Positions 38,351 to 39,722 of a DNA stretch of 64,000 nt are shown piece after piece; within the stretch, counting starts at the first letter, position 1, and every line of letters starts with the position of its first letter. Source of the stretch: Candidatus Poriferisodalis sp. GTDB taxonomy: Bacteria > Actinomycetota > Acidimicrobiia > Acidimicrobiales > Poriferisodalaceae. The translations under genes and the position numbers were made by a program. Location: assembly GCF_965204195.1 (NCBI RefSeq), contig NZ_OZ241975.1:1401184-1465183 (forward strand), read 5' to 3'. The notes below the pieces were generated by a model, which did not search any database, had not been told where the DNA came from, and saw only the letters and a list, made by a program, of their open reading frames with translations.

Positions 38351-39722
38351 TCAGTCGCCGCTTGAACGCTGTGGAGAGATCCAGTCTGCAAAACTGCCAC
38401 CAATGTCGCCAGCAACATCCGCGACATTCTTGGAGACACAATTGGGTCTTCCTCGGACCATTGCCACATGGCATCTCACAACCCGAAGCTCGTTGCCATT
38501 GAACGTGCCGGAGTGCCACGTGGAACCAGAATAGCTGCGGACCAATGCTCCGATAGGCACGGCCTTGATTGGGGTGAGCAAGGAGTCCGGAAGCAGTGAG
38601 CCTGGAAAAGCGGCAAATCGATTCCCGCCGTAGGTTGTCGATATGAATGGAGATGCATATGGACTGATGTTCCGACTGCTGCCTTGGCCGATAATCTGGC
38701 CGTTTGGCGTCTCATCAACCACATAGCCCTCGGGCCGCTCGGTATCGAACAAGTGGCAGTCAAATTGCCCGCTGATCATTTTGCCGAACCAAAGGCACTT
38801 CATGCGTATGACTCCGCCTGAAGTGCTGCGGTCTGAGATGTTGTAACTCGCGACCACGAACAGATCGTCGCGCTCAGCAAGATACATGTTCCCCAACGTG
38901 ATCCAGCAATTCTCTTTGCCGCTGTCGCCCAAGCACGCATTCCATTTCCTAGCCAAATAGCCCCGCAGTGCCTTTTGGTCCACGCCTGCTTTCAAGTTCT
39001 GAGGAGTACCACAGTACTCGTCGAGCAATTTCGAAGCGACGAACTTCCCACCAATTTCCGTGCTGGCCCGTTCGGCATGGTTGAATTTTCCTCCATCAAG
39101 TTTGTCAATCTGCCACATGCCAACACCGGGATGCCAGAAAGCGCGGTGCGGAGCGCTGTTGTGGTCGTCGGACGAATAGAGGCGAGAGTTGACATCGCCA
39201 GCTTCGACCTTGGTCCAACGGTGATCTGCCCGCGAAAGCGACATTAGAGAACGCGCGGGAACTCGACCATTCTCTCGCTCGAACAAGTCTCCATGAGCGT
39301 CGAGCGGGCCGTCATCACGACCGTTGCCATTTTCCTCCACGTACCGTTGTTTCTGGGTCTCCCAGAATCCAATCGCTAGAAGTAGCGCGGTTAAGCGGTG
39401 AACTGACATCCCGCACCGGTTCCCATACGGCAAGAGAGCTTCGACCGCAGCATCACGAGTGCCTAGTAGAGCTCCCCGTGTCACTCGATACGGACCCCGG
39501 TATGGGACTCCGTACATCGGTAGCTCATCCAGTTTGGCGGGGAGCGACAGGGACGATGGCTTCACGCACAAGAGTCCATTGATTGGGCTCTTCACTTGCC
39601 CCTCTGGGCAGCGTGCATAAACGCCTAATGTGATGCTCCTTAGCGTGCCGGTACTGCCGGTGGATTGGCGCGCGCTGTGAGTCGCGCTTTGAGCCGGCGA
39701 AGATGCCACGCCAATAGTCAAC
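38351..39722 (-). pseudogene. 3' half of large PPC-domain protein gene B (unassigned ~440-aa C-terminal domain), separated from its 5' half by IS insertion and inversion
   Basis: Collinear with the C-terminal 450 aa of 57341..60464 (RAFWHPGVGMWQIDK, NSRLYS, ENCWIT). The first 15 codons of track ORF 38351..39766 are IS-derived. Confidence 0.75.
39715..39722. repeat. Target-site duplication half (TAGTCAAC = reverse complement of GTTGACTA) next to IRR of IS copy 1
   Basis: Same 8-mer, in IS orientation, as 63047..63054 next to IRL of IS copy 3. Confidence 0.8.

Follow-up and report, generated by a model that had tools for sequence, protein, structure and literature searches.

A domain family at the variable ends of giant, predicted exported proteins in Candidatus Poriferisodalis has the genetic organization of a polymorphic toxin system

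What might a large protein domain without described relatives do when it occurs in two diverged versions, each directly followed by a gene for a predicted exported protein, in a sponge-associated bacterium? This question is raised by a 64,000-nucleotide stretch of contig NZ_OZ241975.1 of a Candidatus Poriferisodalis sp. (hereafter, the window), in which a first-pass annotation made from the DNA sequence had noted two copies of an unassigned C-terminal domain and suggested both a lysozyme- or SLT-like fold and a new wall-active or toxin domain carried by a PPC-domain protein. We find that, in Candidatus Poriferisodalis and related sponge-associated Acidimicrobiia, the domain forms the variable C-terminal end of giant, repeat-rich proteins with predicted export by the Sec pathway. 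On balance, we lean toward the view that it is a polymorphic-toxin-like extracytoplasmic effector with lipoprotein immunity. Of the two earlier suggestions, that of a new wall-active or toxin domain on a PPC carrier is supported by context, because a constant carrier ends in a variable domain, a lipoprotein gene lies downstream, orphan cassettes and a strain-level swap occur, and there are relatives that lie in wall loci and share repeats of the type found on a GH25 protein.

The two copies, A and B, are readily aligned. Their open reading frames (ORFs; copy A, 38351..39766, minus strand, 471 aa; copy B, 57297..60464, plus strand, 1055 aa) share 214 of 483 residues in BLASTP (44%, E 1e-117), and the domains are 47% identical in a MAFFT alignment, bearing out the earlier estimate that about half of the residues are shared. 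Every motif island reported before was recovered in both copies, namely CG[IM][ST]VH.LTALLL.IGF.E, SLM[ST]LSR.DH.WT, NSRLYS, RAFWHPGVGMWQIDK, NH..RAST, W.AC, EN.CWIT, and DDLFV. The domain limits drawn at first pass are also exact, with 38351 the first base of the minus-strand stop codon, 39722 the last base ahead of an insertion sequence (IS), and 59148 the start of copy B at the codon for its first conserved Cys (CPDGKV). The PPC carrier was confirmed (PF04151 on residues 426-494 of copy B, E 5e-7), and "unassigned" was the correct description of the domain itself, on which Pfam, NCBIfam, PADLOC, and PDB sequence searches were all blank. A candidate Glu (E136 in the ORF of copy A, E704 in that of copy B) does precede the motif GVGMWQID in the order described, at a spacing of 78 residues, which is near the stated figure of about 90 without matching it exactly.

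An exhaustive HMMER search with a profile built from the two copies identified 211 representatives at E ≤ 1e-3 and 103 at E ≤ 1e-10 (counts are of cluster representatives); a word-indexed homologue search with copy A returned nothing beyond copy A itself. For none of the 211 representatives did Pfam, NCBIfam, or the PDB provide a match to the domain, and all are named only "hypothetical protein." Searches with tblastn against plasmids and phages gave no match, and so no sign of an origin as a phage lysin or plasmid bacteriocin, and we found no literature on Poriferisodalis or on PF26607. This Pfam family was rejected as the family of the domain, being precomputed only on members with DGRLEVF-type propeller repeats, and is most likely a model of the repeats themselves. 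Closer relatives carry the domain at the C terminus of proteins of 300-2300 aa, with carrier parts built from Cys-rich repeats and fn3, PPC, and Ig-like modules, and N-terminal signal peptides are present on some homologues (P0009, P0054, P0066, and P0087). The distant relatives have the domain straight after the signal peptide, either as the whole protein (~330 aa) or ahead of FG-GAP, SLH, VWA, RTX, or lectin-type propeller repeats.

Both types share a Glu that ends the helix LAAxMLAxxxxE, the motif SPMxLSRxD, and RAF followed by GxGxWQxD, as well as an Arg ~12 residues past the Asp of GxGxWQxD and the elements W..C, GG...C, F.C, and SPLAxPF. All 53 full-length homologues and all 17 compact relatives examined have the Glu. 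About eight Cys residues are conserved across the family, which fits an exported protein. We conclude that this is an undescribed extracytoplasmic domain of ~400 aa and that copies A and B are two diverged versions of it. Judging from its invariant polar residues, namely the helix-end Glu, the Arg and Asp of SPMxLSRxD, the Gln and Asp of GxGxWQxD, and the further Arg, the domain is probably an enzyme. A papain-like or NlpC/P60 Cys peptidase was rejected, since the Cys ahead of the LAAxMLA helix is not kept in the compact relatives, and so was a colicin M-like DxYDx5HR site, since the His of NH..RA is not conserved beyond the toxin-type subfamily and no PDB match was obtained.

The organization of the locus is what links the domain to polymorphic toxins. 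The two window genes are 100% identical over residues 212-451 of copy B, which form the PPC carrier, and 97% identical over residues 452-491. From about residue 500, identity drops to 25-62% on both sides of the motif DEQTTINFTYWPTNARID, so that constant and variable parts meet at a sharp boundary. Base composition follows the same division: the C-terminal domains with their direct partners have a GC content of 54-61% (35054-39560 and 59100-61811), against 69-71% for carrier DNA, and the additional partner gene pC (35054-36592) is not GC-depleted (67%).

A cognate gene stands right downstream of each C-terminal domain, at gaps of 10 nt and 52 nt in the window. The products of these genes, pB and pA, are paralogues of each other and of pC (29-36% identity). 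No relatives of the three were found in Pfam or NCBIfam, and the PDB was blank, including for a profile of the partner family. Their homologues are all hypothetical proteins, the named ones all from Candidatus Poriferisodalis and the others metagenome sequences. Across the Acidimicrobiia-type loci (L001-L046), a partner homologue adjoins the domain in 43 of 46, nearly always directly downstream and on the same strand, and as many as five cassettes can follow one another in an array, at times accompanied by additional partner genes. The partners are ~450 aa long, and most of their N termini carry a lipobox (for example, LLAGAC, LAAAGC, or VAFGC); the true start of pC is likely an internal lipoprotein signal, MRRTPCC...LLLAQGCS.

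Comparison with a related strain shows how such cassettes vary. A 97% identical strain of Candidatus Poriferisodalis sp. (L002) has the giant gene, then pB, and then an intact orphan gene. It matches the window from 57333 to 62605, a point inside the carrier-derived "handle" of the orphan gene, past which it carries a different C-terminal domain and a different partner. The open frame upstream of the domain spans 1600-2000 aa in the first genes of arrays and 0-860 aa in later ones. Orphan cassettes occur, as does replacement of the C-terminal domain at the strain level. Taken together, the carrier boundary, the gene linkage, the lipoboxes, the orphan arrays, the strain swap, and the GC content constitute the organization of a polymorphic toxin system (PMC3482391).

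A scan of GTDB species representatives placed the domain in 74 loci, mainly in sponge-associated Acidimicrobiia (Poriferisodalis, Poriferisocius, and Aldehydirespirator) and in Microthrixaceae/Iamiaceae. Among the retrieved loci, no fewer than 15 cassettes of domain plus partner, spread over at least five sites (L012, L007/L013, L008, L004, and L014), belong to one Candidatus Poriferisodalis chromosome (NZ_OZ240249.1, a 4.4-Mb genome), an unusually large expansion of one cassette type.

Neither window copy is part of an intact gene. Three 100% identical copies of an IS256/Mutator-family element (1404 nt) are present, the third of which leaves the window at its end. The assignment follows from a PF00872 transposase, the inverted repeats GGGCCTGTCAGGAATTTTGTGTA and GGGACTGTCAGATTTTTTGTGTA, and an 8-bp duplication, GTTGACTA, which is found at 63047-63054 ahead of IS copy 3 and, reverse-complemented, at 39715-39722 beside IS copy 1. 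It is the single matching target duplication pair within the window for the three IS copies. When 61827..63054 is joined to 39714..38351, the result is one in-frame protein of 863 aa, colinear with residues 202-1053 of copy B and 64% identical to it over 854 aligned columns. Because of the duplication and this in-frame join, copy A is the 3' part of an IS-split gene, and inversion by recombination between the inverted IS copies 1 and 3 explains why the halves of the orphan gene lie apart. The orthologue of the giant gene in L002 encodes 2272 aa, so ~1230 N-terminal codons are gone from the copy B gene, and the IS arrangement implies at least one inversion plus the loss or relocation of ~3.7 kb of the giant gene. 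In both ORFs, the opening 15 residues (MNTITAGYTKNLTVP) are encoded by the IS end, and therefore neither ORF opens at a genuine gene start. The system in the window has thus been disabled or rearranged by three identical IS256-family copies (Table 1).

Table 1. Positions of the domain copies, their partners, and the insertion sequences in the window
Feature	Position	Strand	Remarks
Partner pC	35054..36862	−	orphan partner paralogue without its own C-terminal domain
Partner pA	36859..38298	−	479 aa; predicted exported; directly downstream of copy A (52-nt gap); candidate cognate immunity protein
Copy A, linker and C-terminal domain	38351..39722	−	3' part of orphan gene (carrier plus C-terminal domain); stop codon 38351-38353
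Copy A, RAFWHPGVGMWQID	39104-39145	−	
Copy A, SLMSLSRAD	39224-39250	−	
Copy A, invariant Glu in IGFWE	39359-39373	−	
Copy A, core from YRGPY	39488-39502	−	
Copy A, Cys-rich start CPEGQV	39593-39610	−	
IS copy 1	39723..41126	−	inside orphan gene; transposase 39763..41052, PF00872 E 6e-123
IS copy 2	55937..57340	+	truncates giant gene that carries copy B
Giant carrier gene, 3' 1040 codons	57341..60464	+	Ig-like/PPC carrier up to ~58990
Copy B, C-terminal domain	59148..60464	+	
Copy B, invariant Glu in IGFRE	59394-59408	+	
Copy B, SLMTLSRKD	59517-59543	+	
Copy B, RAFWHPGVGMWQID	59622-59663	+	
Partner pB	60474..61811	+	445 aa; N-terminal hydrophobic anchor/signal; 10 nt past copy B stop codon
Orphan gene, 5' part (carrier "handle")	61827..63054	+	PPC-type domains; no signal peptide; begins 16 nt past pB
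IS copy 3	63055..64000	+	runs off window; inverted relative to copy 1

At the boundaries 39722/39723 and 57340/57341, both gene remnants are in frame with the same IS-borne ATG (in MNTITAGYTKNLTVP, overlapping the transposase stop codon), which supplies each of them with a start codon; a shared phase of this kind would arise by chance in about 1 in 9 cases. The plus strand at 41127-46165 carries a Tad/Flp-type pilus gene set, with a CpaF-type ATPase at 42993-44453, a CpaB-like protein that has a SAF domain, and a pair of membrane proteins of the TadB/TadC type; the intact giant gene of strain L002 has cpaB as its divergently oriented neighbor.

Evidence about a substrate comes from the stand-alone relatives, which combine a signal peptide with FG-GAP, SLH, lectin-propeller, VWA, or RTX modules and have no partner homologue in their loci. 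We searched their neighborhoods with seven query proteins from around one stand-alone gene (L076) and counted over the 26 stand-alone-type loci with at least one match; many of the loci derive from metagenome-assembled genomes that are related to one another. Of the 26 loci, 24 have a Wzx-like polytopic membrane protein, 22 have RmlC, 19 have RmlA, and 8 have a GH25 muramidase, with the Wzx-like gene upstream of the domain gene and RmlC, RmlA, and GH25 downstream in most of them. These neighborhoods are dTDP-rhamnose/wall-polysaccharide loci. In one such relative (P0163), residues 305-623 match the C-terminal repeats of the GH25 protein next to it at 47% identity (L076, 9098-11101 and 6001-7872), which means that the domain stands where its neighbor has a muramidase domain, attached to the same targeting module. 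Similarly, a stand-alone member at L079 and its neighbor (6001-7722 and 7747-8499) have a GDWDGNGTDTPG-repeat module in common at 66% identity. Because the stand-alone relatives lie in wall-polysaccharide loci and are built like neighboring muramidases, the substrate is probably a wall glycopolymer, either peptidoglycan or a rhamnose-containing wall polysaccharide; the same observations support an enzyme that acts on such a polymer.

To look for a lysozyme-like fold, the first-pass annotation had proposed structure prediction with Foldseek and profile comparison with Pfam and the PDB. AlphaFold2 run on the two window copies alone gave an unusable model (predicted local distance difference test score, pLDDT, 32), and we used a model from a 33-sequence run (pLDDT 78.7; predicted template modeling score 0.82). 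In this model, the N-terminal half is helical and the C-terminal half β-rich, the invariant Glu closes helix 41-55 with short strands next, and residues 56-110 have low confidence, a weak region that lies around the putative active site. Foldseek comparison of the model with the PDB gave a best E value of 0.57, and nothing significant was found in BFVD (none at E < 0.5). The sole lysozyme-type entry, MltE (2y8p_A), appeared at rank 44 with E 5.5, a TM score of 0.34, and a root mean square deviation of 10 Å, so that the structural comparison yielded no lysozyme-like match. Profile comparison did not yield one either. A Pfam scan of 52 family members (the window copies, 31 homologous domains, and 17 compact relatives among them) at E ≤ 10 contained no SLT (PF01464) or lysozyme match, and PDB sequence and profile searches with a single copy and with two different family alignments gave no match. 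We also aligned the family by hhalign with g-type lysozyme and SLT alignments, which were built from PDB-verified sequences and are thin. Only 11-17 columns aligned with g-type lysozyme, pairing PGVGxWQxDsa with NGFGLMQVDKR (P 0.14-0.17), and no sensible alignment with SLT was obtained, whereas a control comparison of g-type lysozyme with SLT from equally thin alignments reached 92% probability (E 6e-7, 97 columns). No test that we ran thus supports the lysozyme/SLT-like fold suggested at first pass, and the absence of such a fold from the structure prediction is the outcome that the suggestion itself had named as its refutation.

A motif-level likeness to GH23 is nevertheless real in the sequences: a helix-end Glu and then GxGxxQxD, in the same order. 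It invites the reading that the domain belongs to the lysozyme superfamily as an enlarged and highly divergent member, a GH23-like muramidase or lytic transglycosylase in which the Glu would act as general acid and GxGxWQxD would correspond to GLMQ/GFGLMQVD. In its favor, the Glu keeps its invariance and its position at the end of the modeled helix with short strands after it, and the residue after it is T or S in most compact relatives (the window copies have E-I and E-T). The segment G-x-G-h-W-Q-h-D is nearly invariant, resembles GFGLMQVD of g-type lysozyme, and is the single segment that hhalign pairs with it; the stand-alone relatives are found in a wall-related context that includes an adjacent GH25 gene. 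Against this stand the blank Pfam and PDB profile searches, family hhalign values of P 0.14-0.33 compared with the strong control, and the lack of a Foldseek match under E 0.5, with MltE far down the ranking. Moreover, GxGxWQxD is modeled as coil and not as a strand of a lysozyme-type sheet, and the Glu-to-Gln spacing is 48-83 residues in the family compared with ~20-22 counted in verified lysozyme sequences. We consider membership in the lysozyme superfamily distinctly unlikely; it concerns chemistry and fold only and would be compatible with the logic of a toxin.

Other readings do without a toxin. The domain could be a surface housekeeping or nutritional enzyme for wall-polysaccharide remodeling or the degradation of sponge-matrix glycans, with the lipoprotein as a substrate-binding, regulatory, or anchoring partner and the arrays as a means of substrate diversification. 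The partner-free relatives in conserved dTDP-rhamnose/wall-polysaccharide loci would suit such an enzyme, as would the fusions to lectin-type propellers, FG-GAP, and SLH modules, the concentration of the family in sponge symbionts, and the fact that array members all belong to one family. We nonetheless judge it rather unlikely, given that orphan cassettes lack a start or signal peptide of their own yet keep an identical recombination handle, additional partner genes are found that have no C-terminal domain of their own, the cassette of C-terminal domain and partner is not the same in near-identical strains, and cassettes are low in GC, features that are typical of conflict systems and unexpected for metabolic enzymes. 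A non-enzymatic docking module, by which the C-terminal domain would tether a giant adhesin to its cognate membrane lipoprotein and the pairs would co-diversify for pairing specificity, could account for the strict one-to-one adjacency of domain and lipoprotein genes, the many conserved Cys residues, and the lack of a recognizable catalytic fold. However, the stand-alone relatives keep the same invariant polar residues while being partner-free and having anchoring or binding modules of their own, such as SLH; a paralogous architecture has a GH25 catalytic domain where this domain sits; and orphan cassettes would make no sense for an anchor. We regard docking as very improbable.

The polymorphic-toxin-like effector that we favor suggests the following mechanism. 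The giant protein would be exported by the Sec pathway and would present or release its C-terminal domain, which may attack an envelope glycopolymer of neighboring bacteria from outside the membrane. On the surface of the producer, the cognate lipoprotein would bind and neutralize the domain. Recombination through the identical carrier handle could exchange domain and partner together. Behind the main gene lie promoter-less orphan cassettes, each consisting of a carrier piece, a new C-terminal domain, and a partner. Surface-acting polymorphic toxins are known to have exported immunity proteins (PMC3482391). A more specific proposal, which we advance tentatively and hold to be doubtful as a whole, is that the domain founds a new fold family of wall-glycopolymer-cleaving enzymes lacking any structural relative in the PDB, formerly housekeeping in Acidimicrobiales and recruited by sponge symbionts as a Sec-delivered, recombination-diversified antibacterial effector that is neutralized by new, large surface lipoproteins.

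Several observations weigh against an effector with lipoprotein immunity. All C-terminal domains of the arrays belong to one family, whereas unrelated toxin families usually occur side by side in classical polymorphic toxin loci, and we found no carrier with an unrelated toxin domain (a second carrier-like ORF in L001 ends in another PPC-like region with no Pfam match). At ~450 aa, the lipoprotein would be unusually large for an immunity protein, and immunity conferred by lipoproteins is itself rare (PMC3482391). The carriers have no dedicated delivery domain such as Rhs, LXG, or haemagglutinin repeats, nor was a known trafficking domain found on them, the 5' ends of the window genes being lost to IS. 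The predicted fold gave no hint of chemistry in the Foldseek searches of the PDB and BFVD. The synteny of the stand-alone relatives comes largely from related Microthrixaceae/Acidimicrobiales genomes, so that the locus counts are not independent. Finally, because of the IS insertions, both window copies are without a secretion signal, and the locus may be inactive.

If the favored reading is true, the domain and its partner would represent a family of effectors and a family of lipoprotein immunity proteins that are both new to bacterial antagonism, in a class of Actinomycetota, the Acidimicrobiia, and in sponge microbiomes where such systems are barely described. The carrier type, a Sec signal followed by Ig, PPC, and fn3 repeats, would be unlike Rhs, contact-dependent growth inhibition (CDI), LXG, or type VI secretion system (T6SS) delivery. 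A confident predicted structure with no solved match, combined with conserved acidic residues, means that the domain could define a new class of wall-glycan-cleaving enzymes with stand-alone housekeeping relatives, and the many diverged domain-partner pairs would offer a natural data set on the specificity of protein-protein recognition. The window copies are IS-disrupted remnants, and the intact locus is that of the related strain L002.

Two further features of the window are recorded here. On the minus strand, 25642-28698 encodes a type IIG-like restriction-modification enzyme of 1018 aa, which contains N6_Mtase and Eco57I methylase domains, in a patch with a GC content of 60-63% against 67% overall. 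A gene cluster at 12600-19453 encodes amidase, hydantoinase/oxoprolinase-like, and N,N-dimethylformamidase β-subunit-like proteins and is unrelated to the domain.

How does this system compare with known ones? Like polymorphic toxin systems (PMC3482391), including CDI and Rhs loci with orphan C-terminal toxin/immunity cassettes, it combines a large, presumably exported protein, in which a conserved N-terminal part gives way abruptly to a variable C-terminal domain, with a cognate gene directly behind it. Downstream orphan cassettes retain some of the conserved part, C-terminal domain and partner are swapped between strains, and the GC content of the cassettes is atypical. The present system differs in a carrier made of Cys-rich, Ig-like, PPC, and fn3 modules in place of Rhs, haemagglutinin, or LXG, in C-terminal domains that all belong to one undescribed ~400-aa family, and in a ~450-aa lipoprotein partner of an undescribed family, with toxicity and immunity that we infer. 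GH23 enzymes (goose-type lysozyme and Slt70/MltE) resemble it in a helix-end Glu, which is followed by Ser or Thr in most compact relatives of the domain, and in G-x-G-h-h-Q-h-D like GFGLMQVD; profile, hidden Markov model, and structural similarity past the motif are lacking, the inter-motif spacing is two to four times longer here, and the domain is more than twice as large, with a conserved β-rich half. By the tests available, the domain lies outside every described toxin, immunity, and glycoside-hydrolase family.

The TelC-TipC pair of Streptococcus intermedius, in which TelC is an LXG toxin and a lipid II phosphatase that acts outside the membrane and has a previously unobserved fold, is a Gram-positive polymorphic toxin system with a C-terminal domain that lacked characterized homologues, a wall-precursor target outside the membrane, and an exported immunity protein (PMC5555719). 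TelC differs in being exported by the Esx/type VII secretion system through its LXG domain and in having an Asp-rich Ca2+ site, unlike the motifs of our domain, whose model had no Foldseek match in the PDB, which includes TelC. The T6SS peptidoglycan glycoside-hydrolase effectors of Gram-negative bacteria (Tse3/Tsi3 and Tge/Tgi) are lysozyme-fold wall enzymes with extracytoplasmic, often lipoprotein, immunity. They match the logic proposed here in pairing a wall-degrading effector with extracytoplasmic immunity; the present system has no detectable lysozyme homology, would use Sec-type export, and belongs to Actinomycetota. By analogy, then, TelC/TipC and the T6SS wall-hydrolase effectors with periplasmic immunity would be its closest functional precedents.

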